This document shows positions 7,640 through 60,827 of a stretch of DNA of 64,000 bases, in pieces (position 1 is the first letter of the stretch; every line of letters begins with the position of its first letter). Source of the DNA: an uncultured Holophagae bacterium (GTDB lineage Bacteria > Acidobacteriota > Thermoanaerobaculia > Thermoanaerobaculales > Sulfomarinibacteraceae); assembly GCA_963844865.1 (NCBI GenBank), contig CAWJPY010000006.1:187421-251420 (forward strand), given 5' to 3'. The notes under the pieces were generated by a model. The model saw nothing but the letters and a program-made list of their open reading frames with translations. It searched no databases and had not been told where the DNA came from. The translations under genes and the position numbers were made by a program.

Positions 7640-7690
7640 CTGACGGACAGCGGCTGCGATCGGCGGCTGCGATCGGCGGCACAGACCGCG

Positions 7691-7750
7691 CTCGACGACT
7701 TCGACCGCGTGCGGGCGATGACGTGGCGCCTCCTCAACCCGAAGGCCTGA
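7691..7750 (+). pseudogene. Remnant of a four-helix-bundle (23S rRNA IVS-type) protein gene, last 19 codons only
   Basis: It translates to LDDFDRVRAMTWRLLNPKA*, matching the C-terminus of the intact gene at 10707-11060 (FDEVRAMTWRLLNPTR*). GCGATCGGCGGCT repeats lie upstream and a homologous CGCTG-rich tail lies downstream. Confidence 0.7.
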
Positions 7751-7926
7751 CGATCCTCAGGTCCAGAGACGCGCCGGGGGCGCTGAACGCCGACGCGGAC
7801 CGCTGCCCACTGCCGCGGTCGCTGTTCGCGGTCGCCGTCTCTGATCGCAGTCGCTGGCGGCTGTCGCCGGGACTGCCGCTGCTCCGGACGCGGGAACGCA
7901 TCGGTGAGATGGGCTGAAAGAACAAC

Positions 7927-10548: not shown

Positions 10549-10706
10549 AAGCCTGCTCATCGTGACTCTCGAGGTCTTCGAGAGGAGGCACACACGCAGC
10601 AACCAGCGGCGGCGACAGCGTCCGCCTCAGCGACAGCAGGCAGCGATCAGGGAGCGGCGGACAGCGATCGGCCCGAGCCGCGCGACACGTCAGTGAACGT
10701 GGGCCA

Positions 10707-11060
10707 TCAGCGCGTGGGGTTGAGAAGCCGCCACGTCATCGCCCGCACCTCATCGAAACTTTCGAGCGCGGTAGCAGTCTCGGAAGGATCAACAGCCCCC
10801 GCCGCAGCCAGGAGCCGCAGATGGCTGTCGACCTCCTTGGCCGAGCCGTAGGCGATTCGCCAATACTGTGCGCGATCTCGGCCGGACCTTCCTTGGCCTT
10901 CCGCGAGGTTGGCCGGCACCGAGCTCGCCGAGCGGATGACCTGGTCGGCAATCGACTTGAGTGGAGCCGGTATGCGCATGACGAGCTTGATAGCCGCGCC
11001 GGCTGCATCAAGGGCCTTGCGATGGGCAATGAGGTCGCTGGTGGCGAGGACGTCGGGCAT
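10707..11060 (-). CDS. Four-helix bundle protein (23S rRNA intervening-sequence protein / Avd-like family)
   Basis: SIADQVIRSASSVPANLAEGQGR...YWRIAYGSAKEVDSHL is the family signature. ATG 11060 is preceded by GGAGGTGAAC. The long N-terminal extension of ORF 10707..11438 is low-complexity repeat translation. Confidence 0.85.
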   Translation of the reverse strand: MPDVLATSDLIAHRKALDAAGAAIKLVMRIPAPLKSIADQVIRSASSVPANLAEGQGRSGRDRAQYWRIAYGSAKEVDSHLRLLAAAGAVDPSETATALESFDEVRAMTWRLLNPTR

Positions 11061-11095
11061 GTTCACCTCCGGGTCGTTCATGCCTCTCCCGAAAG

Positions 11096-11190
11096 CCGGT
11101 GGCCAGCCCACGTCAAGGGTGCGGAGCCAGCCGGTCCTCGACCGGCTCGCCCTCGACGAGGGCGAGCCCTTGACATGGGCTGGCCACCGG
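11096..11190 (-). other. Compound hairpin in the 5' leader of the four-helix-bundle gene (24-bp outer stem enclosing two inner hairpins)
   Basis: CCGGTGGCCAGCCCACGTCAAGGG (11096-11119) pairs with CCCTTGACATGGGCTGGCCACCGG (11167-11190). The single mismatch is C-A on the plus strand but G-U on the minus (gene) strand. Inner stems are GCCGGT/ACCGGC and CTCGCCCTC/GAGGGCGAG. Confidence 0.6.
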
Positions 11191-11515
11191 TTACTTCTTC
11201 CGCCGAACGACCCGGAGGTGGCCACGCGGTCTCGCGCCATCCACCATCTGCCCATGGAACGCGTCACAGACTGGCACTGAATCTGAGACTGCTCGACTGA
11301 CGACTGTCGCTGGCACCGTCGCTGACACTGTGGGTGCCCCTGCCACTGTCTCTGTTGCCGAGCTGATCTCGTAGGAATGCACGCGCAATCAAGCGCCGCG
11401 AAGCAGCAACCGGCGACGGCGACAGCGGACCGCATCAACGTCGGGAATCAGCGCCGGTCGGCAGTGTCGGCGAGCAGCGATCAGCGGCAGCAAGCGGTGT
11501 CCGCCACAGAGGTAC

Positions 11516-11590
11516 TGGCTCCGCAGGAGGGATTTGAACCCCCAACCTAGTGGTTAACAGCCACCCGCTCTACCGTTGAGCTACTGCGGA
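11516..11590 (-). tRNA. tRNA-Asn (anticodon GTT), CCA encoded
   Basis: Manual cloverleaf: acceptor TCCGCAG/CTGCGGA, D stem GCTC/GAGC, anticodon loop CTGTTAA, T loop TTCAAAT, discriminator G, then CCA. Total 75 nt. Confidence 0.9.
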
Positions 11591-12602: not shown

Positions 12603-15713
<3,111 letters not shown>

Positions 15714-15906: not shown

Positions 15907-16164
15907 GTCGTATTGCTTGATCGCCCATGTGTTCGTCAGATGTACTTGGTAGCCGGCATCCATCAGTCCGTCCACCAGCCAATACCAGTTGTATGTCGAC
16001 TCCACCGCGATGCCCTCGATCTCTTCCCGGAACGGCTCTAAGAATTCCAGGACCAAGTCGAGATCGTTGCCGATCCGCTTCTCCTTCACGACCTGTTGGC
16101 CCTCCACGAAAACAGAGACCCAGCAATTGTTTGAGTGCAGATCGATACCACAGTACAGTGCCAT
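15907..16164 (-). mobile_element. IS110-family transposase, N-terminal fragment only (truncated)
   Basis: MALYCGIDLHSNNCWVSV...IAVESTYNWYWLVDGL...HLTNTWAIKQY matches the DEDD N-terminal domain of IS110 transposases. Similarity is lost after about 86 codons and the C-terminal domain is absent. Confidence 0.75.
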
Positions 16165-16611
16165 TGGCTCCTCCTTCTCCCACTGCTATCCACAGCGGGT
16201 ACTGTTTTCCCAACAGAGAGCGTAATCGCTCTCCGAAGGGGGAGCCTTCTAGAGGATTCTCAGGAGAAACAAAGTTAACAAAGTTGCTGACTGGTACCAG
16301 ACGGGACCGTGCGGCATGAATCGACCACTGGATTCCACCGCAGAAACGCCGCGAACCTGTCCAAGGTTTGGGGTCCACCTCTGGTATCTGGATCGATGGC
16401 ATCTCTGCAAGCCGCGGCGGATGAAGGAGGGCTAGCCCAGATCATTCATGAGCTGTCGGCTGCGAACGTCGATGCATCCGCGCCAGGCGTGTTTTCTCAC
16501 CTTGGGGTGCTCAACGTACCGACCAGTACGCCTCCGCGCCCCAAGGCGAGAAAGCCCACCTGGCATCGGCGCCTCGCCGCCCTCGCTTCGATACCTCATG
16601 AACCATCCGGG

Positions 16612-18132
16612 CTAGCGTCGAGCGCTGAGAGTCTCTCTTTGGAGGACCTTTCCGTTCAGAATCACCTTCTCGATGGAGTCGTAGGCGCTCAGATCTTCAA
16701 GCGGGTTCTTGCGCAGCAGGAGCAGATCGGCGCGCCTGCCGACTTCAACGCTTCCGACTTCGTTCTCGAGGCCGAAGGCTTTGGCATTGTCGAGGGTGGC
16801 AGCGCGGAAAATGGCGGCGAGCGGCACTCCGCCGCGAGCCCAGGCCTGCATTTCCCAGTAGCCCGCAAGCCCCGGAGGATGACTCCAGCCAAAACCACCG
16901 ACGGCGGAATCGGTACCGAGAAGAAATCGGGCACCTCGCTGCTGCCAGCGACCCATCTCTCTCTCGAAGCGCTGATTGACGAAGTCCAGCGCGCTTGCAA
17001 CTTCGATGGCGAGGCCGTCCTCGCCGAGTGAAGTCCCGGCAATCTGGCGGCCGAAAATCCGAAGGAAAAGGCCCTTCTGCACCTGCGCTTCGGTGCGCAG
17101 GTAATTCACATACGTCGCCGGTAGGACGTCGAGAAGCGCCGGGTCGTCGAGCAGGGTGTCGTCGAAGAGGGTCGCGGTACCGCGGAGCGTCTGCGCCGTC
17201 GGCTGAATCCAGATGCCGCTCGCCGCCACCTCGTCGCCCAGCGCCGTGATTTCAGGAAGGATACTCCCGCCATTGCGAAAGCTCCCCGGCCACTCCCACA
17301 GACCGTGGGCCAGGATATCGACGCCTGTCGCCAGGGCGAAACGGTAGCCGGCCGGGGTGGTGGCGTGCAACACAACGGGCATGCCGCGCTGGTGCGCCTC
17401 CTGCACGACTTCCCGGACGATCTGCTCTGAGGGCAGTGCGAAGCTTGGGCGTTCCGGCCCCGGCCACCACAAGGCCTCCTCGTAGTAGAGCTTGACGCAG
17501 CGGCCTCCGTGTTCCGCGATTGTCGCAACTGTGGCGGCTGGAGTGTGGTCCTCGGGCTCGAAGCCCGCCGGCAAATTCGGGGTCGTGAAGCGGTCGTGAA
17601 GAAAATTGGGATACGCGGCGAAGAACTCCCCCGCATCGTCGAAGTCGGTGGCCATGAAATCGTTCGAGAGCACGAGTCCTTGACCGCAATGATAAAGGTC
17701 GGGGTGCTCCGACGCGTCCTCGAAGCGCTGGTTGGTGGCGAAATCGGCGTTGAGCTCGATAACCGAGGTGTAGCCGAAGTAGAGAAGGCTGCGCGGCAAC
17801 TGCTCGCGGTAGGCGGCGATGAGTTCATCGTAGTGCTCGGTGTAGCGCCGGCTGAGACCGGGTGCGTGGTAGAGGTGGACGTGGCTGTCGATGAGGCCGG
17901 GAATCAGGAAACGGCCCGAGCCGTCGATCGTTTCCTTGGCCGCCCGAGCCTTGCCTGCCGCCTCGATGCTGGTGATCCTGCCCTGGTCGACGCAGACATC
18001 GGCCTGAAAGGGCGCAGGGCGATCGGCCGAAACCACCGTCACGTTCTCGAAACAGAGGTCCGCCGGGGGAGCGGTCGCGCCGCAGGCACCAAGAGATACC
18101 AAAGCGGCCATGAGGATCAGTTTCCTTGTCAT
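16612..18132 (-). CDS. Amidohydrolase family lipoprotein
   Basis: Lipoprotein signal MTRKLILMAALVSLGAC, metal-binding PGLIDSHVHLYH near the N-terminus and GTDS...RADLLLL near the C-terminus. Confidence 0.85.
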   Translation of the reverse strand: MTRKLILMAALVSLGACGATAPPADLCFENVTVVSADRPAPFQADVCVDQGRITSIEAAGKARAAKETIDGSGRFLIPGLIDSHVHLYHAPGLSRRYTEHYDELIAAYREQLPRSLLYFGYTSVIELNADFATNQRFEDASEHPDLYHCGQGLVLSNDFMATDFDDAGEFFAAYPNFLHDRFTTPNLPAGFEPEDHTPAATVATIAEHGGRCVKLYYEEALWWPGPERPSFALPSEQIVREVVQEAHQRGMPVVLHATTPAGYRFALATGVDILAHGLWEWPGSFRNGGSILPEITALGDEVAASGIWIQPTAQTLRGTATLFDDTLLDDPALLDVLPATYVNYLRTEAQVQKGLFLRIFGRQIAGTSLGEDGLAIEVASALDFVNQRFEREMGRWQQRGARFLLGTDSAVGGFGWSHPPGLAGYWEMQAWARGGVPLAAIFRAATLDNAKAFGLENEVGSVEVGRRADLLLLRKNPLEDLSAYDSIEKVILNGKVLQRETLSARR

Positions 18133-18290
18133 CTGCCAGAAACTCGTTTCTTTGGGTTCCGTGGATCACGTCGTTGGGCGAGGTCACTCTCATGGGGAAA
18201 TGATCGATGCCATCAAGTGATACGTGGAACCCGCCCTCTCGGTTCGCGGCGCCGTCGCGCTTCACATCGTCATCCATCGTTTTCGCATGG

Positions 18291-18350
18291 GTGCCAGGTC
18301 CGCAGTTCCGTAGTTGCGAGGCCATAGCTACGGAACTGCGGATCTGGCAC
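18291..18350. repeat. 23-bp inverted repeat (22/23 match) with 14-nt spacer
   Basis: GTGCCAGGTCCGCAGTTCCGTAG ... CTACGGAACTGCGGATCTGGCAC, read directly. It lies between the amidohydrolase start and the methyltransferase fragment. Confidence 0.8.
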
Positions 18351-18379
18351 TTATTCTGACGCCGATGTTCGCCGCCTCC

Positions 18380-18690
18380 TCAGTGCGGGCGGCGCGCCAC
18401 CAGAAAGGCGGTGGTCCCGTTCGCGTCCACATCCGGGCGGGCGATGTCGACGAAACCGGTCTTGGCCATGGCGGCTTCGAGGTCGGCCGAACGCATGATC
18501 ACCACCGGCGGCGCCTTGCCGAGCCACCGCATCGCCGCCAGAATCGGTCGGAAGGGCACCCACGAGTCGGCAAGGCACACCGTCGACGAGGCGAACAGTC
18601 CCCCGGGGCGCAGACGGTCGAAAATCGCCGTGAGCACCTCGCGCCAGTCGGACACGAGGTGCAGGATGTAGGGATAGGAAATTCCTTTCG
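18380..18690 (-). pseudogene. Class I SAM-dependent methyltransferase, C-terminal fragment
   Basis: ISYPYILHLVSDWREVLTAIFDRLRPGGLF is the post-II/III motif region. The N-terminal SAM-binding GxGxG region is missing. Confidence 0.6.
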
Positions 18691-18880
18691 TTCAGTGCCA
18701 GCCTAGCACGGGATTGAGGCGTCTATTCGGGGCCCAAGATGGGATCGGATGCCTCGGACGGTCTCCAATACGGTAGAAACCGGAGCGCGTCCTTGGAAAA
18801 CATGCTTCGAACCCCGGTTCCGCGTCCGGCCGCAGCCGCAATGAACACACCCTGCACAGACGGCCGCGGTCGAGATGGAG

Positions 18881-19814
18881 TCAGGAGGTGGCGGGGGTCG
18901 CCGCGCCTGGCGGTCCGCGGGGAGACCGCGCTTCCGCTTTCGCGAGATGCCTCAGGATCGCGTCGACCACGTCGTGCTCGGTGATGATCGCGACGACCTT
19001 CATCTCCGAGCCGCAGGACGGGCACACCAGCGGATCGACCTCGTAGATCCGCTTGATCAGTTGGGCCCAGCTTCGCCGGAGGGCACGAGCGTCGCGGGCC
19101 TCGGCGCGAGCCGCGCTGGAGTCCGGGTCGGAACCGACACCCTCAACCTTCCCACCTTCAGCCTCCGCCTTCCGCCGCTTGCCCCGCGACACGTTGGAGT
19201 ACCACCCGTAGTACCGCACCAGGTGCCGCCGCGGCTCGGGGATGTGCATGATGACTCGGGCAACAAATTCGGCCGGATCGAAGGCCTCGGCAATGTCGCC
19301 GGCCAGCATGGCCCGACCGTCGTGGCCTCCTTTCGCCCGATAGTGCACCACGCCCTCCCCGCCCCACTGGACCCGCTCGAGGCTGATCGGCGGCCGCATG
19401 ATGTAGCGGGCGAGACGCTCCACCACCGGCTGATCCTCGGGCTCCACCCGCACGCTGTTCTCCACCCCCCTCCCTACACAGACCCACCGGGACGAGCGGG
19501 TGGCCGTAGGGCAGCCACCCGCCCTCTTCAACCCCCATGCCCACGGCCACGGACGCTCGCTCCGGCGGGTTGTGGACCGAAAAGCCGTTGTGCCGCCACG
19601 ACAGCAGCAGCTCGGTGCGCTCCTCGGTAAGAAGCCCGACGTCCCGAAGCACGCGCATCACCTTGTGGCGATAGAGCAGCTCGGCGGCATACTCATCGAC
19701 ATACGCGATCGGCACCCACTCCCAGTCGCGCCTCCAACCACCACGGGACACCAGTGCGTGCACGTGCGGGTGCCATCTCGCCAGATGGCCCGCGGTCTGC
19801 ACCACCGCCACCAT
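18881..19814 (-). mobile_element. IS91-family (Y2, rolling-circle) transposase pseudogene, 5'-truncated and frame-disrupted
   Basis: VQTAGHLARWHPHVHALVSRGG and SWRHNGFSVHN lie in frame A (19158..19814). RLARYIMRPPISLERV...LVRYYGWYSNVSRGKR...CPSCGSEMKVVAII lies in frame B (18881..19531). The N-terminal zinc-binding part is absent. Confidence 0.8.
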
Positions 19815-20118
19815 CCCCGGGCGCAGGGTCTCCTCACCCGTAGGCTTCGGTGTCGTCGCGGTGGACGACGACCCTGAAGACGAAACTCCCTACTTCTTCC
19901 CGGCACCGGTGATCTTCGCCGACGGCTTCGAACTCGGAAACCCCTCGGCCTGGAGCGGCACCACGCCCTGAGCCCCGTCTGGATGGGTGCGATGGGATGG
20001 GGTTGATCTGATGGGTGCCACCTATCAAGGGTGGCACCTATCCTATTCGTTTACGATCAAGGCTGTCTCCGCGTGAACCGAATCCCGCCCACGGCGGCTC
20101 TCCGCCGGCGGAGCTGGG

Positions 20119-21144
20119 CTAGGGGCAAAGATCCTGGCAAGCGTTCCACTCATCCTGGAAGATCCGCCAACACTCCATCAGGGCGTCGATACCATCCTCG
20201 AGGTCAGGGTCTTGGAATTTGTGGTCCTCCTGCTTCCAACAGTTGATCTGAAAGCACTCTCGCAGCGAAGGGTCCGCCCCCGTTCCCGGCAGGGGCTCGG
20301 GGGCCAAGCGCTCGGTGAGATCATCCAGGCAGTCCGCCTCGAGCTCGGGGCAGTCGATCTGAAACGCCCCCTGCTTGGTCGCCGCGCAGGCCCGGAATCC
20401 GATCCTCGCGTTTTTCTCGCAAGCCGACTCCAGCTCGGGACAGCCGGCGCGAAAGAGCCGCCACTCTACGTTGCCACCCGCCGTCTGGTAGATCTGATCC
20501 AAACCTGGAAGAGGCTCCACGTTGGCGTCGAATGTGCCTTCCAGCACGGTTGGGCTACCCCCGGTGTAGCGGCCCTCAAAATAGACCGGCTCGATAACGT
20601 TGTCGCTGCCGCTCCTGGGATCGCTCATCTTGCGGGTGCCCTGGGAGTCGGTGATCTCGATGAGCACCTGGCCGGATTCGGGCACATCCTCCAGCTCGAA
20701 ACCACCCGTGTCGATCCAGTACTTCTTGACGGCGTAGTTGACCCATAACTCCATGTTGCATGCTTTCGGGCCGAGCTTGCGGGCCTTTGCCTGGAGCGTT
20801 CTCGTATCCAGGGTTCGCATCGAGCCTCCGTCACCGCGTTGGATCGCTTCCTGGCTCAAGGTCTCCAGGTAGTCGACGGTGGCGGAGCGGACCTTGTACT
20901 TCACCGTACGCCCCACAGCCTCTTGCCGCTCGAAGTGCACCATCATGGTCCACTCCTTGTGGGCGTTCACAACGACCCGGTCCGCAATGTTCTGGAGTGG
21001 TGAGTCGTCGGGGAGTACCAAGCTCCAGTCGAGCGTGATGAAACCCGACCACGAGTCCTTGGCGGGTTCAGCCCCGGCCGCTACCGTCGAGAGGCTCAAC
21101 AGCAACGCGGTGCCGATTACCGTCACACTTCGAAAGCCAATCAT
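20119..21144 (-). CDS. Secreted hypothetical protein with Cys-rich C-terminus (paralog of the broken gene at 24459-25426)
   Basis: GAGGAG RBS and a signal peptide (ALLLSLSTVAAGA). Blocks shared with 24459-25426: DSWSGFITLDWS/DDWTGMITLEWE, VDYLET, GQVLIEITDSQGTR/GQIVIEITDENGTR and FDANVEP...WRL. I recognise no known domain. Confidence 0.75.
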   Translation of the reverse strand: MIGFRSVTVIGTALLLSLSTVAAGAEPAKDSWSGFITLDWSLVLPDDSPLQNIADRVVVNAHKEWTMMVHFERQEAVGRTVKYKVRSATVDYLETLSQEAIQRGDGGSMRTLDTRTLQAKARKLGPKACNMELWVNYAVKKYWIDTGGFELEDVPESGQVLIEITDSQGTRKMSDPRSGSDNVIEPVYFEGRYTGGSPTVLEGTFDANVEPLPGLDQIYQTAGGNVEWRLFRAGCPELESACEKNARIGFRACAATKQGAFQIDCPELEADCLDDLTERLAPEPLPGTGADPSLRECFQINCWKQEDHKFQDPDLEDGIDALMECWRIFQDEWNACQDLCP

Positions 21145-21524
21145 CCCCGTGCTCCTCGCGGCGCGAAGCGCCGGCAGGTTTTCAGTCCCAGAGACGATCG
21201 GACAGGTCTGGCTGCCTGAGCTATTGTAACACCAAATCTGTGCCAGCCTTTAGCCTGATGGGTACGATGGGTACCACGTTCACAATTGTTGAATTGTGAG
21301 GGGGGCTGGGCAGCGATCCCGAGTTCAAGAGGTGGCTCGCCGACCTCGATACGATACTGCGATCTCACGCCGGAGCTGGCGAATCAACAAGTGTGAACGT
21401 GGCACCCGTTGGGCACCCGTTGCGTTAGCGTTTTGGCGATGAGCTCTTCTCGCGGCAGGGTGTGGAGAGGCGGCTTTGAGAGGTCGGGCATTTGCCCTTT
21501 CCCAAAGCTGAACGAAACGGTCGG

Positions 21525-21716
21525 TCACCCACCGATCTCGGGAATCGAAAGCCCTCGGCAGATCTTCTGCGCCAGTCTATCAGCGATCTCTGTGTGTCGC
21601 GGAACGGTTTCGACGGCCCCCGTGTTCGGGTTGGACCACAACGAATGTGCCGCCCCTTCGCGTTTGAGGACGCAACCGTGTTTGCGGAGGTGCTTGAGGA
21701 GAGCGTTCCGCTTCAT
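21525..21716 (-). CDS. hicA: Type II toxin HicA (mRNA interferase)
   Basis: 63 aa, MKRNALLKHLRKHGCVLKREGAAHSLWSNPNTGAVETVPRHTEI. It overlaps hicB by 4 nt. Confidence 0.9.
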   Translation of the reverse strand: MKRNALLKHLRKHGCVLKREGAAHSLWSNPNTGAVETVPRHTEIADRLAQKICRGLSIPEIGG

Positions 21717-21928
21717 CCAACGGTGATGATCTCTTGAATGGCGTCGTCGGGCACTCCACGCAGGACGTCCTCGCGACGGTCAGCGAGGATCAGCTTGATG
21801 GCCTCCCTCAGGCTGTCCAGGGACTCCTCTTTCGTTTTCCCCTGGCCGTTCGCACCGGGAAGCTCTGGGCAGTACGCGATGAACCACTCGCCGTCGCGCT
21901 CGATGACCGCAGTGAACTGATTGGTCAC
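21713..21928 (-). CDS. hicB: Type II antitoxin HicB (short form, no obvious DNA-binding domain)
   Basis: 71 aa, FTAVIERDGEWFIAYCPELPGANGQGKTKEESLDSLREAI, which is the HicB N-terminal fold signature. Confidence 0.88.
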   Translation of the reverse strand: MTNQFTAVIERDGEWFIAYCPELPGANGQGKTKEESLDSLREAIKLILADRREDVLRGVPDDAIQEIITVG

Positions 21929-22045
21929 GAGGACCTCCCTCTTGCACAGATCATTATGTCATCGAACTGCAGCGAGTTTCATTCTTCACGTCAGGATCAC
22001 CAAGTCGGCACCGTCTCCCAGCCGGGGAAGGGATCAGTGCTGAGG

Positions 22046-22144
22046 CAATTCTCAATTCTCAATTATGAATTTTGAATTACCTCGCAGAAGTTGATGGAAC
22101 ATTGCGATGGAATTAAGAATTGAGAATTCACAATTAAGAACTTG
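22046..22144. repeat. Two AT-rich arrays of five 7-bp phased units each, separated by a 29-nt spacer
   Basis: Array 1 (22046-22080): CAATTCT CAATTCT CAATTAT GAATTTT GAATTAC. Array 2 (22110-22144): GAATTAA GAATTGA GAATTCA CAATTAA GAACTTG. The reverse complement aligns with 3721-3745 (AATTCAAAATT..GAGAATT.CC). Confidence 0.85.
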
Positions 22145-22150
22145 CGATGC

Positions 22151-22878
22151 CTACCACGTCGGCACCGTCTCCCACCCGGGAAAGGGCCAACCTCGATCTT
22201 CCAGCCGGTCGGCGATTGCGCGTCGCGGACGACGCGGAGATTGGTGAGAGTCTTGAGCTTGGCGATCAGCTCCTCGCGCGGCAGGGTATGAAGCGGAGGT
22301 TTGGAGAGGTCGGGCATGGGCCACAATCGAATGGTGTTGTCCTGGCCGGCCGAGACGATCCAGCGTCCGAGAGGGTCGATGAGCACATGGATGATCGAGC
22401 TGTCGTGGCCGAGAAGCAGGTGCGGCTCTTCACCCGTGGCCGGTCCCACGCGAACGACACCGTTGGAATCTCCGGTCACCGCCACGGTGCCTTCCTGGTT
22501 GAGTGCCATTCTCCGGACGTGCAAACCGTGGGTCGTGAGCGCCGTTACGCCACCCGTTTCGAGATCGACGAAAACGGGAGGCCCCGCGGGGTCCTGCATC
22601 GAGTCGCCCTCCCCGTTTTCAGTCATCAGGAGACGCCGTCCGTCCTTGGTGGCGACAAAACCGCTCACGTCATACTCGAAGAGAATCTCGTGATTCCCCG
22701 TGTCAACCTCCCATGCCACGACTCCCTTTGACGTTGCGGTCAGCAGCCGGCCGTCGTTCGCGAAACTCGCGCCTAACCTGAATTCACCGTCGGAGAGACG
22801 GAGAGCCGCCAGCTCCCGCCCCGACGCCACCTCCCACACACGTCTAGTCAGCGAGCTGATCAGGACGATGGCGGCCAT
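22151..22878 (-). pseudogene. WD40-repeat protein, C-terminal fragment (N-terminally truncated, 1-nt frameshift near the end)
   Basis: WD40-like repeats (TGDSNGVVRV, SAGQDNTIRLWPMP). No plausible N-terminus. With one G restored in CCGGGTGGGAG the frame reads PFPGWETVPTW* and stops at 22151. As sequenced the ORF runs on to 22063 through the AT-rich repeats. Confidence 0.65.
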
Positions 22879-23595
22879 CTGCAGCCGGCCCGGTCGAATC
22901 GCGGACGTAGGATACGTTCAGCAGGGCGCCGAAATCACCCATACCGGTTTCCCATCGGTCGCTGATGAGGTATGTCGGGAACCTTGGTATGTGGCTTATG
23001 TTAATTGAAAATGAGCAAACGCTTGCGCAACGGACCTTCGTGACGGGAGAAGCGCCGAGGCGACGGCGTGCCCGATCTGGTCGCGGGGAACGTTTTCCTT
23101 GGTCTTGGCTGTGATCACCATCAAGAGGAGGGGACCGACATCGTGGAGCAGACGGCTGTCATCGCTCAGGAAGTCGAGCTTGCGGTCGTGCTCAATCGGA
23201 GTGCGGATGTGGTGAGTCACACAGTTGGGGAGGGTGGGCGGCGGAGGATCGACGGTGAGGCATTCGCGCTTGGAGAGCCTTGACGCCGACACCGTTGCCC
23301 GCCTCCATCCCCGGCTGGCGCGCGGCGACCTATGACATCGGACGACTTTGGAACCACAGACACGGCACCCATGTTTCCGAGTACGGCCGCGCCGAGGCTG
23401 TGGAGTGGGCCTACCGGGTCAAGAACGCGCTTACCATCGGTGGCCCGATCAACGCCGGGCTGAAAAAGGGCCTCCTGATCGCCCGATCCGTCGCATCGCA
23501 CCCCGGTGACGCCTCGCCAGATTGACACCCTTCATCAGGGGACATAACTTCAGTCTCAAAAGAACAACCGGTATCGGACTGCGGAGGAGGATCTG

Positions 23596-24441
23596 GTGAA
23601 GCTCAGCCGTCGCCTCGTCGTCGCCGCCGCGGTGCTCGCCATCTGCGGACCTGCCATCGCCCAGGAGCACCCGGTCATCAAACCCATCAAGGGCTTCGTA
23701 CTGCGTCCCGCCGCCCAGCAGAAGGTCACGAACTACGACCAGTTCCGTTTCCGGCGCACGGACGCCCAGGGGCACTCCGAGTTCTATGTCAAGAAGGGCA
23801 AGTTCTGGGACCTCGACTACCACAAGCCGATGCCCGACGGCTCGGATGACCGGAGCTTCTCCAGGATCGAGATCGTCGACAACTATGTCGCCGCGGTGAC
23901 CGAGGCGGGCGGCACGATCTACTACAATTATGAAGGGGAGCTGCAGTTCAGTATTCCCCGGCCCGACGGCGGCATCAGCTACGCCCGTGTGATGGCGAGC
24001 GACGGCCGCTACCGGCTGCAGATCATCGACGAGAAGCCGCTCGAGCGGAACCTTGAGTTCACCTCGGCCGACGACATGTACAAGGGCATCGAGGCAGCCG
24101 GCTTCGTGGCCGTGTACGGCATCCACTTCGACACCGACAAGGCCGACCTCAAGGTCGGCGCCGCCAAGACCCTCGAGGAGGTCGTGAAGCTGCTCCAGGC
24201 CCACCCCGATCTGAAGGTGGAGATCCAGGGGCACACCGACTCCACCGGCTCGGATGACCACAACCTCGACCTGTCGCGGCGCCGCGCCGACACCGTCAAG
24301 GCGTACCTGCAGCTCTACGGCATCGCGGCTGACCGGCTGACGACCACCGGCTTCGGCGAGTCCAAGCCGGTGGGCGACAACGCCACCGAGGAGGGCCGGG
24401 CTCTCAACCGCCGGGTCGAACTGCACCGGGTGGGAGAATGA
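23596..24441 (+). CDS. OmpA family protein with DUF4892-like N-terminal domain (copy A)
   Basis: GTG start after GGAGGAGG and a signal peptide. The C-terminal OmpA_C motif is GHTDSTGSDDHNLDLSRRRADTV...NRRVEL. It aligns along its full length with 44626-45477. Confidence 0.88.
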   Translation: MKLSRRLVVAAAVLAICGPAIAQEHPVIKPIKGFVLRPAAQQKVTNYDQFRFRRTDAQGHSEFYVKKGKFWDLDYHKPMPDGSDDRSFSRIEIVDNYVAAVTEAGGTIYYNYEGELQFSIPRPDGGISYARVMASDGRYRLQIIDEKPLERNLEFTSADDMYKGIEAAGFVAVYGIHFDTDKADLKVGAAKTLEEVVKLLQAHPDLKVEIQGHTDSTGSDDHNLDLSRRRADTVKAYLQLYGIAADRLTTTGFGESKPVGDNATEEGRALNRRVELHRVGE

Positions 24442-24458
24442 CGATGTGATTCCACCAC

Positions 24459-25426
24459 ATGGCTATCCTCGGGATCGTTGTCGGTCTGCTGATTTCGGCG
24501 ACTCCGGTGGCCGCCACCGAACCGCCCGAAGCACCGCCGGGATCCGGTGGAAACTCCCTCCCCGACGATTGGACGGGAATGATCACGCTGGAGTGGGAGT
24601 CCGGAATACCCGACGACTCGCCGCTGCACCAGCAAATCGAGCAGGTCTCGATGAGGTACGGAAAGCGGTGGAACCTGTATCTGACTTTGCACGCCGAAAA
24701 TCGCGGCCCGATCAGGGTTCGTTACAAATGCACCCGGGCGCCGGTCGACTATCTCGAGACCTCGGCGACCGTGGGCAAGAACGGCGCCATCAGCACGAAG
24801 GAGATCTGGAAGATCGAGGCCGGCAAACGGATCCTTGACGATCACCAGTGCAATCTGGTGTTGGTGGTCGACTCCAATACAAAGAAACATTGGAGCGAGG
24901 TGGGAAGTTCGAGATTCCCAACGCCACCAAGACCGGACAGATCGTCATCGAGATCACTGACGAGAACGGCACACGAACGGTCGCCAACCCTCTCGACAAG
25001 GAAACCGATGTCGTCGAGCGGTTTCGCTTCGAGGACCGGTACACCGAAAACCGACCGTTGAAGCTGATCGGCCAGTTCGACGCCAACGTGGAGCCCCCGG
25101 CCGGCGTCGACATCACCCACGAGACGGTGGCTGGCGATATCGATTGGCGCCTCTACCGCGGCGTTTGCCCGGATGTGAGAAAACAGTCCTTCGAAGATGC
25201 CGGGAAATAGATGACCAATTGTTTGGATGTCACGCCGGACGAGCACGACGGGCTATGCGAGCCTTACGGCCTCCACAACTGTCTCGTAATGGTCGCCAGT
25301 CCGTCGATGAACTTCTTTGATGTACACGACTGTGTGGAAGACAACTGCACTTGGGAATTGGGCACTCCCGAGTTTGACGGTGCTGTCAACGCACTCAAGG
25401 ACTGCATGGACGAGTGGATTAGATAG
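24459..25426 (+). pseudogene. Broken paralog of the 20119-21144 secreted Cys-rich protein (one frameshift, one in-frame TAG)
   Basis: Three collinear pieces: 24459-24900, 24848-25210 and 25211-25426. The frame shifts at the GGG run 24902-24904. TAG at 25208-25210 is directly followed by ATG. Confidence 0.75.
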
Positions 25427-25692
25427 ACCGAGAAGTGCAATCGGCTTTGCCCCTGAGCGTGTCACCAGGCGTCGCAGGACAGTAACTCCTCGCCCTACCC
25501 CGTCTCGAAAGCGAGCCGAGGCTCGGCCACGTATGAAAGATGGACTCTGCAAGCCTTGAAAGCGTGTGTCCGCGGCTGAGGCAGGATATCGCCGCCGAGT
25601 TGAAGACCGACGCTGGAATGAGATGGCGATGCCGAGTCGTTCAGAGGGCGCCCGGGTTGTTTCTTGATCCCCGGCGGCGCAGCACGGTCCAA

Positions 25693-26172
25693 TCAACCGT
25701 CTCCGACGCCGATGTTGTACGAGATCAGCTTCCATGCTTCGTTTTCGCGCACCAGCTTGAACGAGCACGGAATCTTGGTTCCGCTTGCCAGCGTCACGGT
25801 ACCTTCGAACTCGGCGCCGCTCATATCCACCGAACGGCTGGTAAACGACGTGTCGGTCACGTTGAACAGGTGCTGGTTCGCCGTAACCCCGGCGGAGAAC
25901 TGGTCGAAGGGTTGCGCCTCCTTGAGCGGCGACGAGAAGCAGTCGTAGGCGGCCTCGAGATTGCCGTCAGCGGCCTCGGTAAGGAAGGTTTGAACGACCT
26001 TTTCGGGCTCGGCCGTGGCCTGCTTGACAACGAACAGGATCACGACGATGAGCACGACGAAAAGTGCGATCAGGCCGCCGCACCCGAGGAGAACCCAACG
26101 GAGCCAGGGGCGCGATTTCTGGGATTGCAGGTCTGAGGAATCCGTGAATGCCGCGTCGGTCCTGTCACTCAT
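25693..26172 (-). CDS. Membrane-anchored hypothetical protein (single TM plus about 100-aa extracytoplasmic domain, possibly DUF4864/NTF2-like)
   Basis: 159-aa ORF with TM LLGCGGLIALFVVLIVVILFVV. It lies 57 nt downstream of the ankyrin gene on the same strand. Confidence 0.6.
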   Translation of the reverse strand: MSDRTDAAFTDSSDLQSQKSRPWLRWVLLGCGGLIALFVVLIVVILFVVKQATAEPEKVVQTFLTEAADGNLEAAYDCFSSPLKEAQPFDQFSAGVTANQHLFNVTDTSFTSRSVDMSGAEFEGTVTLASGTKIPCSFKLVRENEAWKLISYNIGVGDG

Positions 26173-26229
26173 GAGTCATGCTTTCGTTCAAACAGCGCGT
26201 CGGTTTTCCAAATCGCCACCGCGGTGTTT

Positions 26230-27390
26230 CTACCAGTCATGTGTCGCCCCGGCCTGCTCGAGGAGTGCCGCGACATCGGTTTTCCCTGTCTGCTGCGTCA
26301 CGGCGAGGGCGGTTGTGCCCTTGTCCGTGACCGCGTTGACATCTGCTCCGTGGGCGAGCAGTGCCTTGACGACGGGAACGTGGCCCGCCTGGGATGCGAC
26401 CATCAACGGGGTCCAGCCTCCCCGGGCACGGGCGTTGACGTCGGCACCGTGGGAGAGCAGCGAGTTTACGATCTCGAGCTTGCCGTCGAACGAGGCCGCA
26501 ACAAGGGCGGTCGTTCCGTCGTTTTTCGTTGCGTTGGCGTCGGCTTTGGCGGCGAGCAGGGCTTCGACCACGTCGGACCAGCCCTCACGGGCGGCCAGCA
26601 GCAGAGCCGTGGTTCCATCCGTGGCGGCGGCATTGACGTCAGCACCCGCCGCGATCAGTTCCTGCACGACCTCGGTGTGACCATTCTGCGTCGTCACCAG
26701 CAGCGCCGTCCAGTCGTCACGTGCTCGAGCGTTGACGTCGGCGCCCCGCGAGATCAGCAGTGCGAGGGTTTCGAGATGGTCGTTCTGAGCCGCCAACATC
26801 AGTGCTGATCCGCCGTCCTTCGGCTGGATATCGATCGCAGCTCCACCGTCGAGCAGCACGCGCACCGTCTCCGTCCGTCCGTTCTGGGCTGCCTTCATCA
26901 ACGCCGTGGTGCCGTTCAAGTTGTGCGCCGCAGTGTCAGCGCCTCGACTCAGCAGCGTCGACACCGTTTGGTCGTGGCCGTTCTGAGCCGCCAACATGAG
27001 AGCCGTCCAGCCTTCGTCGTTGGCGTCGTCGATGTCGGCTCCCGCGTCCGCAAGCATCTCCAGGGTGGCCGTGTGGCCGTTCTGGGCAGCGAGCATCAGC
27101 GTCGTCCAACCACCCTTGATCGTCGAACTCACGCCAGCTCCCCTCTCCAGCAAAACCCGCACGGTCTCTGTGAATCCCCCTTGAGCCGCAAGAGCCAAAG
27201 CGGTGGCGCCCTCGGGCGTCCTCGACTCAATGTTGGCTCCGCGCGCCAGCAGTTCGACGACCGAGTCTGTTCTTCCGTTCATTGCCGCGTCGCGAAGCTC
27301 GTAGCCGAGATCCTCTGCGCCGGTGATGGCCGGCGCGAGAAAGGCAGCGGCCCACAGGAGAACCCACACACGGAGTGATCGTCTGCGCAT
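26230..27390 (-). CDS. Secreted ankyrin-repeat protein (about 11 ANK repeats)
   Basis: ATG 27390 gives the signal peptide MRRRSLRVWVLLWAAAFLAPAITGA. It is followed by tandem 33-aa units of the form GxTALMLAAQNGHxxxVxxLLxxGADxN. Confidence 0.9.
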   Translation of the reverse strand: MRRRSLRVWVLLWAAAFLAPAITGAEDLGYELRDAAMNGRTDSVVELLARGANIESRTPEGATALALAAQGGFTETVRVLLERGAGVSSTIKGGWTTLMLAAQNGHTATLEMLADAGADIDDANDEGWTALMLAAQNGHDQTVSTLLSRGADTAAHNLNGTTALMKAAQNGRTETVRVLLDGGAAIDIQPKDGGSALMLAAQNDHLETLALLISRGADVNARARDDWTALLVTTQNGHTEVVQELIAAGADVNAAATDGTTALLLAAREGWSDVVEALLAAKADANATKNDGTTALVAASFDGKLEIVNSLLSHGADVNARARGGWTPLMVASQAGHVPVVKALLAHGADVNAVTDKGTTALAVTQQTGKTDVAALLEQAGATHDW

Positions 27391-27450
27391 TGCAATCCCC
27401 CTGAACGAAGCGCCTCGCGACTCCCTTGTCACTCGTAACGGTTCCCCTAG

Positions 27451-27479
27451 AATGTAGGCTCTCCGAGCTGTGACGACAA
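27451..27479 (-). promoter_or_regulatory. Candidate sigma-70 promoter for the ankyrin operon (TTGTCG-17 nt-TACATT)
   Basis: Read on the minus strand. It lies about 60 nt upstream of ATG 27390. Confidence 0.3.
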
Positions 27480-27525
27480 CACGCGAAGCGATGCCTGTCG
27501 CGGCATTGACGGAATCGCCCGCGTT

Positions 27526-27590
27526 CACTTGAATCCGGTGGTGGCGGGATTGGTTGACGACCCCGCCGAGCATGTGCCCGATTCGGCACC
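27526..27590 (+). pseudogene. Short remnant of an IS200/RayT-like (Y1) transposase C-terminus
   Basis: HLNPVVAGLVDDPAEHVPDS resembles the conserved YIHxNPVRAGLVxxPxxYPWSS block. Nothing else of the gene remains. Confidence 0.3.
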
Positions 27591-28662
27591 GCAGGCGTCT
27601 GCCGGCCCTGTCACGAGGGACCAGCTACCGCCGGTGTGGGACCTCGTGGGGCTCTGTCGGCGCGCCCCCCTGCGGGCACGCCCAGCCGGGTCGATCGACG
27701 CCGACCCAGATCCAGTTGCAGTGCCGCGGGCAGAAGCGAACCATGCCGGAGGTGAGGGGATAGGAAGCTCCTTTCGCGCACCTCTGAAGGTGAACGACTC
27801 GGTGTCACGTATCACAACCTCACAACACTGACTTGCCGCGGTCCTCGCTTTCTTTCTGCCAAGCTGCAACCAGGCTCTCCAACCGCTCGTGCCGGTGCCA
27901 CCAATGCCACGAGCGACAAGACCGGGCGCGACCGAAACCAGTGGCGCCATGCTGTACGACCCTCTCACGCAAGGTCGAACCACCAAGACGACTATCGCCC
28001 TCAATCCCACAACTACCTCCATTTCAGGAGGATATCGATCCGACCGAGGTCGTATATATCTCGCTTGCGGGCCCCCGCACGACGACCCCGGAAGCGGCCG
28101 TGGCCGTGGGCGTGGGGGTCGGTACGAGGGTGGGGGACGCCGTACGGCCACCCGCTTGTGGGGTCGGGGCACCGCGCGAGGGTGGGTGTGGGAGGAGGGG
28201 CGGTGGACAGGGGGGCGCGAGTAACACGCCCACGGCTGCGACCGCGACTGAGCGTTTGCCCGCTCCTGCGGCAATCGCTGCAGGCGCTCGGAGGCGGGGG
28301 CGGCAACGGCGCCCATGGCCAGGAGCGCGCCCATACCACTCATTCCTCCGGCGCTGCTCCCACTTGGTCGACACACGTTCCCACACCACAAACCCGAAGC
28401 GGCCGTGGCCGTAGGCGGAGGGGTCGGCACGACGGCAACCGCGGCCACGGACGACTCACGTGCACGAAACGGAATCGTGGTGTACACTCCAGCGATCGGA
28501 GAAACAGGTGCCCTCGGTCCGTGCTCGTTGGCGCGGGCCGTTTTCAGCGTCACCTCCCGCGACGACGTCGGCCACGCGCGGACCGCGGAGCACGGAGAGG
28601 AGTCCGCAATGAAGAGAGGCGCCCTGCTGCTGTCAATCATCTTCCTGATCACCGTGTAGGCT

Positions 28663-43100: not shown

Positions 43101-43242
43101 GTCGTCGGTGGTGCTGACGCTCCTCGTCCTGCCCTACGTCATGCTCGGCGTCGAGGGCGTCGCCTCTTGGGCGCGGCACGTCTGGCGGGGGTCATCCCCA
43201 GCTCCGGTGGGCGACGTGACGGAGGCGGCGCCGGCGGGCTGA
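40162..43242 (+). CDS. Efflux RND transporter permease subunit, second of two (MdtB/MdtC-like tandem arrangement)
   Basis: GTG start 5 nt after AGGAGG. 1026 aa with the same architecture (LAVGMLVDNAVVVLE, VNNGIVLVDHIN). Confidence 0.93.
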   Translation: MSLPRLAVKRPITTAMVLASVLLVGAIAVMRLPLAWLPEIDAPFIGVEVTYPNSHPRQVEKEITKPIEEALATLSGVKKMTTTSRADGAQIILEFDWGQELDVVRMKVSEKIDQVRASLPDDVVNVVIFSFNTTDIPVVQGRIAATGVDLSQNYDLLETRVVNPLRRVPGVARVDLNGIEPPELFIDLELDKVKEHGVDVGRLVRLLDGVSQNLVLGEVNEGGLRYTVRSLAAFDSLDHLPDLPIDERGLRLGDIARIRYEEPIIEYGRHLAGKPAIAFDVYKESTANTVEVVQAVNRVLHEEIDRDPLLAGIEVFVWQDQGQEILDGLNGLKSAGAIGALLATLCLYFFLRRLDATLIVSLSIPFSILAACGVFYFLGGSLNILSMMGLMLAVGMLVDNAVVVLEAIDRRLRAGVERRAAALEGASQVLMAVTASTATTLIVFLPLVVGSGTALTTWLKEVGLVISIALACSLFSSLTLIPLMSAHLLRSREPRRVRPVEWLEERYVRVLGWTLGHRAKTFGLLVLGLAVGLAPFALGLVKTAMFSAVVNKRMYLAYEFADFAYKSDAERAVDQIEAFLFAHSQDFGVESVYSYYTENEAGTTITLDREDLGDEAAKELRTKIRDGLPTIPGVRVFFQEEAEGGGSTTYFSVKLFGQDSGVLYDLADEAARRLATVDGVEDVAPPRKGGRREVQLRLDRDKAAGLGLTADDVTRLVSFSLGGLRLNRFSSSGKEIDTWIALRLEDRESLADLKQIPISTRSGRPVLLGDLASFQVVERPQEIRREDRKVQVAVRGTYEGDDWKGAKTEIAALMNAFDLPAGTSWSWNDRILEQQSQDQEMGVNFMLALVLVYLVMASLFESLAQPFAILFSIPFALPGVAWVLALTGTPFNLMAQIGLLILMGVVVNNGIVLVDHINLLRRSGLDRDQAILEAGRERLRPILMTAATTIVGLLPLSIGGANVDGLLYFPMARTVMGGLLSSVVLTLLVLPYVMLGVEGVASWARHVWRGSSPAPVGDVTEAAPAG

Positions 43243-43333
43243 ACGAGGCCTTGGCCATACCCACCTGTCTGGTCCGCCACTCCGTCCTCGTCGAGCTTGT
43301 GGGAGGTCGGTGCCGGTCCGTCTCCGACCCCGG

Positions 43334-45477: not shown

Positions 45478-45980
45478 GGCGACCTCCAGTCGGGTGCAAG
45501 AAGTCCCCTTCTTGCCCAGACGCCGGGCAACGCTTCATCTGCATGACTCCAATTGGGGCCCTGCCTTAGTTGTATGGCGCCCTCGTTGAGGCGTCAACTC
45601 AAGATTGGTGCCACGGGCGTCACGTTGACAATGTTGTGGCGGCCCTGCGCGTGAAAGGGAAGATGCTTTGAAGGCGGAAGATCTTGAACGCGGTTTGCGC
45701 GACGTTCACATGGGGTTCTCGCTGGGCGATAGTGTGTTCGAAGACGAGAACGAGACGGTCACGGTGTGGGTGGGCCTATGGGTACGCGGAGGCTGCTCGG
45801 CCGCGTAACGAGGCCCGTGCGCTTCTACCGCGAATGGACCATCCGGATCAGGAGTCCTGCGAGCCAACAGTCGCTGCGATACAGAAAGGTGACCATTCCT
45901 CTCTGACTGGCTCGGCGACGATCCGGGTCAGACATTCTTGAGGTCGTTTCTCCTGCCACCAATCGAGCTCACTCATGCAC

Positions 45981-57834: not shown

Positions 57835-57936
57835 CAGCCGCGGCATCCCGCGTCCGAATCGGCGACTGCGATCGGCGACTGCGATCGGCGAGCTCGGTGC
57901 CCGCGAACCTGAGACGCGCACGGTGCGCCAGAGCGG

Positions 57937-58120: not shown

Positions 58121-58151
58121 GCCTCTCGCCTGCCCGGATCGCGTTCGGGCC

Positions 58152-60772: not shown

Positions 60773-60827
60773 CTCCTGGTGCGGTCTGCGACGCCGGATC
60801 GCCGGGGCCCTTCGCTTCGGAAAGGCC

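Follow-up and report, generated by a model that had tools for sequence, protein, structure and literature searches.

How does a gene of the kind carried by 23S rRNA intervening sequences (IVSs) come to lie in ordinary intergenic DNA, enclosed by short repeats and next to a tRNA gene? The question is raised by a stretch of 64,000 nucleotides from an uncultured Holophagae bacterium (contig CAWJPY010000006.1, positions 187,421 to 251,420), referred to in its entirety as the window, in which a unit carrying a small four-helix-bundle gene spans about 10562-11360 (~0.8 kb). To our knowledge, the origin and spread of rRNA IVSs that bear an open reading frame (ORF), together with the role of their 'S23p' proteins, have been open questions since about 1990. 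The answer that we favor, and hold to be probable rather than secure, is that the unit belongs to a family of IVS-type palindromic mobile cassettes residing outside rRNA, of which the window contains one intact copy, two deleted copies, and a solo arm.

The cassette is repeated, its parts follow a conserved order, and its architecture is that of the ORF-bearing 23S rRNA IVSs, outside rRNA. In related genomes it has inverted ends and 9-bp duplications, and deletion derivatives of it have moved; by analogy, the window copies would have arisen through the same transposition process. The preliminary description of this locus had already proposed a repeated intergenic element with a 117-amino acid four-helix-bundle gene, mobile rather than housekeeping in nature. 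The former proposal is confirmed by matches of the protein to PF05635 and TIGR02436 and by the alignment of three gene tails, and the latter is supported by a second paralogue at 90% identity, at least 447 relatives, the inverted repeats and 9-bp duplications of those relatives, two deleted copies that share a junction, and a difference in presence between two related contigs.

Gene, leader, and arms of the intact unit

An ORF scan places the four-helix-bundle gene at window 10707-11060 on the (-) strand, with 117 codons and a stop. Two hidden Markov models (HMMs) match its product: PF05635 (23S_rRNA_IVP), at E 9.8e-18 and 64.8 bits (cutoff 33.8), and TIGR02436 ('four helix bundle protein'), at E 2.8e-18 and 66.1 bits (cutoff 24). 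An AlphaFold2 model (pLDDT 93.4) consists of four helices. The closest structure found with Foldseek is XCC0516 (2GSC; E 1e-5, template modeling (TM) score 0.83), with BT_0352 (2RLD) at TM 0.84, and phmmer also matches the protein to 2GSC (E 2e-5). By HMM and by fold, the protein is a PF05635 four-helix bundle. Next in similarity is bAvd, as seen in the ribonucleoprotein of a diversity-generating retroelement (DGR) (8UB7, 4DWL), at TM 0.75-0.80 and 11-14% identity, and the link to 23S IVS and Avd proteins drawn in the preliminary description is thus correct at the level of the fold. This likeness to bAvd is also what would commend a reading of the locus as a DGR remnant, in which an Avd accessory gene has outlived its reverse transcriptase. 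We regard that as very improbable: the best matches in both sequence and fold are the non-DGR proteins XCC0516 and BT_0352, no reverse transcriptase lies beside the intact copy or beside those relatives with gene calls, and no template/variable repeat pair was noticed, although no dedicated search for one was made.

Purifying selection acts on the ORF. The ratio of nonsynonymous to synonymous substitution (dN/dS) is 0.13 among 21 copies in one genome (dS 0.35) and 0.14 across loci from different genomes, and the ORF is therefore functional in most copies.

The gene is preceded by a conserved leader hairpin (11064-11220, (-) strand), detected in a self-BLAST of the unit as a 157-nt inverted repeat. 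Its basal stem, P1, is of 15-16 bp and pairs CACCUCCGGGUCGUU (11220->11206) with AACGACCCGGAGGUG (11078->11064), whereby the Shine-Dalgarno sequence GGAGGUG (11070->11064), 3 nt before the ATG at 11060, is masked by an anti-Shine-Dalgarno CACCUCC. The second stem, P2, is of ~24 bp, with a strongly covarying lower part, an invariant top box GUCAAGGG/CCCUUGAC, and an apex of variable length. The pair CACCTCCGGGTCGTT ... AACGACCCGGAGGTG is held by 145 of ~160 related loci, 127-163 nt apart in all save a few. In an RNAalifold analysis of 56 leader sequences sharing <88% identity, 40 pairs were predicted, 22 of them with compensatory changes on both sides. The covariation shows the hairpin to be a real structure, predicted to mask the ribosome-binding site. 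The pair table also has G-U pairs, read on the gene strand, at a number of positions; not weighed against A-C mismatches, they would fit a fold of the sense strand. Rfam contains no family for the leader: in the window only tRNAs reach the gathering score, and at E values up to 1 the leader region gives just sub-threshold microRNA and Mcr7 noise. A promoter inside the leader was considered and rejected, the invariant TTGACA in P2 lacking a conserved -10 partner on either strand in an alignment inspected by eye; a promoter consensus scan of the intact locus finds only the promoter of the neighboring tRNA gene.

The leader also bears on where translation begins. Gene callers use an upstream ATG at 11081, which gives a 124-residue version (MNDPEVN M...), and among the best 120 of the 3761 homologues in databases (P0001-P0120), most entries are of this length. 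P1 covers both this ATG and the supposed codons MNDPEV, and compensatory changes fall within the supposed first seven codons (e.g. CCTGGTTG with CAACCAGG and CCGAATCG with CGATTCGG). The ATG at 11060, by contrast, has GGAGGTG before it and gives the 117-residue protein. Since the MNDPEV region is constrained as a stem and not as protein, the true start is very probably the ATG at 11060 and the 117-residue form the true product. The seven N-terminal codons in most database entries of this clade would then be spurious, representing one strand of an RNA stem.

Leader and gene are bracketed by two repeat arms. On the upstream side, the 5' arm (11225-11360, (-) strand) consists of CAG-phased 6-7-nt repeats (CAGTG/CAGCG/CAGGG), with successive CAG spacings of 6, 6, 12, 6, 12, 6, 7, 8, 6, 6, and 6 nt. 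The 3' arm (10589-10700, (-) strand) is complementary in type, being built of CTG-phased short repeats of GATCGCTG or CGCTG type on the gene strand, and ends in the landmark GCTGGTTGCTGC. Beyond it, a small terminal hairpin (10562-10588, (-) strand; CTCTCGAAGACCTCGAGAG on the gene strand, then TCAC) forms the 3', or right, end of the unit, 14 nt from the stop codon of a convergent glycosyltransferase gene. In two close relatives, L083 and L084 (related loci are numbered with the prefix L), pairing in this hairpin is kept through compensatory changes, and in position it matches the right inverted repeat CTCTGTCTTGGACAAGAGTG of the copies in CAWCLO01, a metagenome-assembled genome (MAG).

The unit had at first been drawn at 10560-11515 (~950 bp) with CGCTG-type repeats on both sides. 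Its core stands, at ~10562-11360, and the repeat type holds for the 3' tract and for the far tract at 11400-11515. The adjacent 5' tract (11225-11360) is instead of CAG type, and 11400-11515 is an extra, solo arm. This solo tract, between tRNA-Asn and the intact element, is of the 3'-arm type, with the CTG motif on the gene strand ((-) strand), and its segment 11403-11453 is a direct repeat of 3' arm positions 10596-10645 (78% identity over 51 nt in the self-BLAST). From this resemblance, it is probably the remnant of an older copy.

The same bracket recurs in the relatives. Over the 200 nt upstream of the leader, 120 of 121 related loci are rich in CAG[C/T/G]G (8.3 per 200 nt; complement, 0.26), and in 106 of the 121 the 200 nt past the stop codon show the reverse, with C[GAC]CTG-type motifs at 5.3 against 0.6. 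Successive upstream CAG spacings across these loci are 6 or 7 nt in 72% of cases, compared with 4% after shuffling, and the commonest arm heptamers are GGCAGCG, GACAGCG, and AACAGCG. Within the 64 kb, 80-nt stretches rich in CGCTG/CACTG and CAGCG/CAGTG are confined to the three element loci and 11400-11515; the short repeats are therefore part of the element and not a general feature of spacers in this genome, which disposes of the earlier caveat that the flanking similarity might be mere low-complexity GC-rich sequence. The minimum-free-energy fold of the window unit pairs the 5' arm with the 3' arm, and across 19 whole elements such folds contain a mean of 57 arm-to-arm pairs, against 33 with a dinucleotide-shuffled 3' arm. 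The complementarity of motif type is solid, and a specific long arm-to-arm stem is only moderately supported. A separate observation concerns arm length: at L069:10421-10521, the 3' arm differs by 100 nt from that of L076 in copies otherwise 94-98% identical, and arm length appears to change quickly, as reported for the Coxiella IVS heptamers.

Copies, relatives, and marks of transposition

With up to two mismatches allowed, the window has three occurrences of GCGATGACGTGGCGGCTCCTCAACCC, the 26-nt tail of the gene (7715-7740 on the (+) strand, 10717-10742 on the (-) strand, and 58149-58174 on the (+) strand), where none would be expected by chance, and the three tails align. The two decayed copies of the preliminary description, with gene tail and homologous arms, were accordingly found, at 7640-7885 and 57855-58305, both on the (+) strand and both internally deleted. 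They retain the order of arm, gene remnant, and complementary arm, without the leader and most of the gene. More of the gene survives than the last codons alone, as had been supposed: the first of these copies keeps ~22 codons, and the second has an additional piece from mid-gene.

In the copy at 7640-7885, an internal-deletion derivative, a 5' arm (7640-7690, (+) strand) with 2.4 copies of the 13-mer GCGGCTGCGATCG is followed by a gene remnant of the last ~22 codons (7685-7750, (+) strand; ending ..ALDDFDRVRAMTWRLLNPKA and stop) and a 3' arm (7780-7885, (+) strand). Its neighbors are a PPDK_N-domain gene ((+) strand) and a glutamate dehydrogenase gene ((-) strand), which are convergent. The copy at 57855-58305, flanked by an aldo/keto reductase gene and a peptidase M3 gene, has a 5' arm (57855-57895, (+) strand), a mid-gene fragment encoding ASSVPANL (57882-57910, (+) strand, from self-BLAST), a middle section of unrelated repeat with GTGCCAGGCAC palindromes (57905-58145), a gene tail (58140-58184, (+) strand; ..RVRAMTWRLLYPTA and stop), and a 3' arm (58200-58305, (+) strand). 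By eye, arm and gene share a short homology, TCGGCGA, at which the deletion appears to have been joined. In both copies, the 5' arm is built from the 13-mer GGCG(G/A)CTGCGATC, and this shared repeat unit suggests a sub-family distinct from the intact copy.

The repeat that displaces the middle of the copy at 57855-58305 is a second small intergenic family, of GGTGCC(A/T)GGCACC palindromes. It recurs 2.7 kb away at window 60823-60945 (92.6% over 81 nt) and is also found in related metagenome contigs (L081:3532-3628 and L089:2662-2763).

Beyond the window, the 117-residue protein has 3761 database matches, the best 120 of which are 74-100% identical. Two of them, P0001 (100%) and P0006 (90% identity), share one contig of 664,792 bp; the source genome therefore has at least two intact paralogues. 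At least 447 related sites were confirmed in species-representative genomes and 436 further sites in a metagenome scan. From the genome scan, 76 loci were kept, in MAGs labeled Thermoanaerobaculia, 'Holophagae', or Sulfomarinibacteraceae and in one labeled Chondromyces; CAWCLO01 supplies 21 of the 76 and holds at least that number of copies. No homologue was found in phages. Nucleotide homology to the window extends across genomes over the leader and gene (the equivalent of 10706-11238), and within a genome it starts some 300-400 nt before the ATG and continues for 130-270 nt beyond the stop codon. Full-length units of the family are of ~0.8-0.9 kb, with a leader hairpin of 130-160 nt.

Marks of transposition are seen in CAWCLO01, where the aligned copies have sharply defined ends on both the left (TCACTGCTGTCCAAAACAG...) and the right (...CTCTGTCTTGGACAAGAGTGA). 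The two ends are mutual inverted repeats of 13-20 nt (CACTGCTGTCCAA.../...TTGGACAAGAGTG). The 9-bp flanks match at eight or more of nine positions in 9 of 21 unique elements, compared with 7.8% in a control in which left and right 9-mers were paired across different loci. The perfect or near-perfect duplications include the non-repetitive targets ACGCAAAGA, GATAAAGA(T/A), and AAGCGCAA(T/A). Many targets resemble ATSCWGSAT, a sequence recurrent in the (CATCCAG)n tracts that often flank the element. As a further observation on these tracts, (CTGGATG)n / (CATCCAG)n heptamers lie directly outside the element ends at L063, L067, L036, and L048 of CAWCLO01, and the preferred 9-bp target (ATCCAGCAT-like) occurs within them. 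Inverted repeats together with a target duplication of fixed length, here 9 bp, are classically a sign of DDE transposases. A 9-bp duplication combined with ends starting in CA recalls IS4/Tn5/Tn10. In a paper on the IS4 family, no end sequence matching the element was found.

Elements of 390-624 bp with the same ends are present in CAWCLO01 as internal-deletion derivatives. Two of these, L056:13749-14372 and one in L059, have a common deletion junction but lie at different sites, each with its own duplication, and ORF-less copies have therefore moved in trans. One 20-kb locus, L038 (CAWCLO010000007.1:241044-261409), holds five copies, three gene-bearing and two short. In the short copies (10861-11316 and 17926-18315), a hairpin GTGGTGTAGGCGTCTCGCCTGCACACC...GGCCGCACCAC takes the place of the gene; the same hairpin also adjoins the copies at L035 and L067.

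The ends are not the same everywhere. In CAVTEP01, copies begin with GAACGTTCGGCTCATCCGGAATT... and close with its complement, beside AACGTT-containing 8-mers, and the inverted repeats take the form GAACGTTCGGCTCATCCGG.../...CCGGATGAGCC.AACGTTC. A duplication of ~6-8 bp is plausible here, albeit ambiguous because AACGTT is itself a palindrome. Ends of this type also bound a decayed element of ~790 bp in L069, which is missing from L076, a contig with flanks 82-98% identical. In the lineage of the window (the window, L077, L079, L081-L084, and L161), the end features are the terminal hairpin on the right and, internally, the inverted landmark GCAGCAACCAGC / GCTGGTTGCTGC; the inverted-repeat pattern of CAWCLO01 is absent from this lineage and from most other genomes.

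These marks have to be set against the possibility of a host paralogous family with a shared regulatory leader, spread by duplication and recombination, whose arms are regulatory or structural RNA. Purifying selection on the ORF would sit well with such a family, as would the leader, a conserved translational-control structure. So would the stability of loci between samples: a JGI contig of the same species, L161, carries an identical locus only three single-nucleotide polymorphisms from the window, and L077 matches L078. A host family would not be expected, however, to have sharp ends with inverted repeats and 9-bp duplications in relatives, derivatives that lack the ORF but keep the same ends at new sites, flanking genes that are unrelated from locus to locus, or a presence/absence difference between the related contigs L069 and L076. 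On balance, we consider it improbable.

Several observations nevertheless weigh against a mobile cassette. In the window lineage, aligned with six close relatives, neither a left inverted repeat nor a target duplication could be defined; the evidence for a transposon signature therefore comes from relatives sharing 71-81% protein identity. The end repeats themselves differ between genomes (CACTGCTGTCCAA... versus GAACGTTCGGCTCATCC...). No clean empty site has been seen: L076 holds other sequence where L069 has its element, an all-against-all comparison of loci gave no clean filled/empty pair, and an orthologue-based test yielded only the same-strain L161 and the rearranged, distant L162. In 1.6 Mb of related-locus sequence, no transposase with matching ends 1.4-4 kb apart was found. 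The window copy has 65 arm-to-arm pairs, against 44-71 with a dinucleotide-shuffled arm, and hence no excess. Finally, strong purifying selection on at least 20 paralogues would not be expected of a mere passenger gene.

Genomic setting and possible modes of movement and expression

Directly upstream of the intact element, on the same strand, lies the gene for tRNA-Asn(GTT) (11516-11590, (-) strand), with a promoter-like site TTGACA-16-TACAAT at 11637->11610 on the (-) strand. No terminator-like site was found between tRNA-Asn and the four-helix-bundle gene, and with so strong a promoter-like site, read-through expression is therefore plausible. The adjacency itself, to which the preliminary description had attached meaning, is incidental: a tRNA is near the element in only 1 of 20 related loci, and the 24-mer at the tRNA 3' end occurs once in the window at up to three mismatches, leaving no duplicated tRNA fragment. 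These findings also bear on a reading of the locus as a tRNA-targeting integrative element, or as a chance likeness of low-complexity GC-rich spacers, for which the abutting tRNA-Asn and the low complexity of the arms might be cited. There is no integrase, the gene-tail 26-mer is found three times where none is expected, and the motif enrichment and phasing are far above shuffled controls. Refuted by the att, adjacency, 26-mer, and shuffle tests, this reading has next to no chance of being correct.

Copies inside rRNA operons, for which a check had been proposed, were not encountered among the family. The window contains no rRNA, and rRNA probes placed the element beside rRNA in none of ~160 related loci, four matches to one 17-mer probe being unsupported by the other three; a distant homologue, that of Azospirillum, is by contrast located within 23S rRNA. 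The flanking genes are unrelated from locus to locus. Those around the intact copy are for a glycosyltransferase, tRNA-Asn, a DUF3891 protein, and PGM, and those in relatives include SIR2, aminotransferase, DnaE, and penicillin amidase. In a rough GC3-based gene call of 41 loci, 31 have a convergent gene downstream and 24 a co-oriented gene upstream.

In the distant genome of L162, tRNA-Asn lies next to DUF3891 without the element, in a gene order that is otherwise rearranged. The spacer between the PPDK_N and glutamate dehydrogenase genes of this genome (L162:260-420), orthologous to the site of the decayed copy at 7640-7885, contains a strong hairpin, CCTTGACGTC...GACGTCAAGG, with GGGACAG/GGGGCAG repeats nearby; it is reminiscent of the leader box, although its arms come in reversed order. 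As a candidate copy the spacer was rejected, its similarity to the element not being significant. Elsewhere in the window, the regions 16001-28000 and 43001-46000 have a G+C content of 0.59-0.64, compared with 0.67-0.73 in the rest; the block from 16001, which begins just past a tRNA-Met (15636-15712), may be horizontally acquired DNA.

A mechanism can be outlined for the mobile cassette that we favor. Insertion takes place at the DNA level in the relatives, where inverted repeats bound the unit and 9 bp of the target are duplicated, and would have done so in the window. As copies without the ORF also move, the enzyme that cuts and joins would act in trans and would most likely be an unlinked transposase of the DDE type. 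The cassette has no recognizable promoter of its own and would be transcribed by read-through from the host gene upstream, in this instance tRNA-Asn, with the leader expected to keep the ribosome-binding site closed. By analogy with rRNA IVSs, P2 of the leader and the arm-arm duplexes would be substrates for RNase III, whose cleavage would both regulate translation and release the cassette RNA from the transcript of the host gene. The protein is envisaged as functional, probably a pentameric nucleic-acid-binding bundle like XCC0516 and Avd, for which the cassette's own leader box or heptamer arrays would be the likeliest ligands.

The strongest rival to this scheme dispenses with a dedicated transposase: in an autonomous cassette, the bundle protein would itself be the factor needed for propagation or retention, perhaps by bringing a nuclease, polymerase, or reverse transcriptase of the host to the heptamer arrays. 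Avd, which serves the DGR reverse transcriptase, offers a precedent of this type. A dN/dS of 0.13 among paralogues of the same genome is typical of proteins that an element needs for its spread; arms, leader, and ORF are conserved while the end repeats differ between genomes; the repeat bracket accompanies PF05635 genes across phyla; and the 1.6 Mb of related loci revealed no transposase with matching ends. The last point says little, since no more than these 1.6 Mb of relevant genomes were covered. Furthermore, a helical bundle of 117 residues has no known catalytic fold, and XCC0516, BT_0352, and Avd are not enzymes, whereas the fixed 9-bp duplication and the inverted repeats point to DDE transposases. 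We therefore judge the autonomous cassette to be unlikely, and prefer the mobile insertion cassette moved in trans.

Distant PF05635 genes and known systems

The repeat bracket is not peculiar to the Acidobacteriota relatives. On annotated plasmids, PF05635 genes ~33-37% identical to that of the window have purine-rich tandem 7-8-mers upstream and the complement downstream. In pANA02 of Anabaena sp. 90 (L165), the gene lies between cas6 and cas4 with ~290 nt of GACAGGT/GGGAACA, and a 38-nt stem links the ribosome-binding region with the 3' flank. The copy of Picosynechococcus PCC 7003 (L167) lies between cas10 and cmr3 (repeats of GGAGATAA type), and that of Pseudanabaena galeata (L169) again between cas6 and cas4, here with AAAAGCT upstream and AAAAGCC downstream in the same orientation and the inverted form AGCTTTT farther upstream. 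In Geminocystis (L166), the gene is found between a ParA-like gene and parB (GGGAAGA). Intergenic examples are those of Nostoc punctiforme (CAGGAGT), Stanieria (GGCAGAA), Nostoc PCC 7120 (CTGCCTT/CTGCCCT downstream), and Leptolyngbya (GGAGAT(A/G)G type), and a further one comes from a Gemmatirosa record without annotation (AGGGCAGG). The operon-resident genes are co-oriented with their neighbors, as cas6/four-helix bundle/cas4 (twice), cas10/four-helix bundle/cmr3, and parA-like/four-helix bundle/parB. Large screens list '23S rRNA IVP' genes as CRISPR-linked (PMC10910872), and the repeat arms or the lodging in operons may explain that linkage.

IVSs reside in the 23S rRNA gene at helix 9, 25, or 45, and that of Leptospira is among those that bear an ORF. 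The copy of Azospirillum lipoferum on AZO_p2 (L173) is embedded in a 23S rRNA gene (906 bits to Rfam LSU), with arms GGACGGATGACAGAGGACGGAGGACAGA ... TCCGTCCTCTGTCTTCTGTCATCCGTC, and its protein is 35% identical to that of the window (E 9e-9). The IVS of Coxiella burnetii has a 28-bp terminal stem that is cut by RNase III, the 5' cut falling at the first repeat, and carries tandem GACAGAT heptamers in variable number upstream of an S23p ORF that is reported to be decaying and unexpressed (PMC4990558). From these resemblances, a wider conjecture can be framed, which we advance tentatively and think doubtful: PF05635 genes with an inverted CAG-type heptamer bracket may form one widespread, unrecognized class of selfish cassette, with the 23S IVSs as its rRNA-resident members and the bundle protein as the cassette's own factor, binding the arrays or leader box and needed for spread or retention. 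Such a role would account for the dozens of paralogues kept under purifying selection and for the presence of these genes in cas6/four-helix bundle/cas4 and cas10/four-helix bundle/cmr3 operons.

In the literature covered, which is incomplete, no paper connects PF05635 genes with heptamer brackets outside rRNA or with cassettes that have inverted repeats and target duplications, and neither the leader RNA nor the combination of an IVS-type cassette with mobility is described. The family thus presents an IVS-type cassette caught outside rRNA in dozens of copies, with transposon-like ends and 9-bp duplications in the relatives, an ORF under clear purifying selection, and a covarying leader RNA absent from Rfam. 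The identity of the transposase that moves it, any RNase III cleavage of leader and arms, and any affinity of the protein for heptamer arrays can all now be tested.

With the ORF-bearing 23S rRNA IVSs, the window element shares a PF05635 protein and CAG-containing purine-rich heptamers upstream, with the complement downstream, in variable number; the bracket heptamers are GACAGAT in Coxiella, GGACAGA/CTGTCTT in Azospirillum, and GACAGCG/CGCTGTC in the window. It is unlike them in being intergenic, so that it lacks the residence in rRNA by which an IVS is defined, in belonging to a multi-copy family with tens of copies per genome, in having relatives with terminal inverted repeats and a 9-bp target duplication, and in its leader, a separate hairpin that covaries and covers the Shine-Dalgarno sequence. 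Purifying selection acts on the ORF of the window family, in contrast to the decay reported for that of Coxiella, and excision by RNase III, demonstrated for IVSs, would be expected of the window element by analogy.

Avd proteins of DGRs, which act bound to structured RNA, are likewise four-helix bundles of about 115 residues (TM ~0.75-0.80), but at 11-14% identity they are more distant from the window protein than the non-DGR XCC0516 and BT_0352. The short tandem repeats known as STRR, heptamers of GGGAATC or GGGGA(C/T)T type in cyanobacteria and Xanthomonas (PMC4692102), resemble the arms in being intergenic tandem 7-mers of variable copy number, in bacterial groups rich in PF05635 genes. 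They differ in that the window-type repeats form an inverted bracket around a gene, and papers on STRR draw no link to PF05635.

Mobile insertion cassettes and miniature inverted-repeat transposable elements are bounded by inverted repeats, lack a transposase, may or may not have a passenger gene, and are moved in trans. The family resembles them in its inverted repeats and fixed 9-bp duplication (both in relatives), the absence of a transposase gene, the 117-codon ORF being the sole ORF, its high copy number, and its shorter, internally deleted derivatives that still move. It departs from them in that passenger gene, leader, and arms, unlike the end repeats, show conservation across genomes and phyla, and in that the passenger gene is under selection in every copy. 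The element is therefore best filed as an IVS-type four-helix-bundle cassette that behaves like a mobile insertion cassette.

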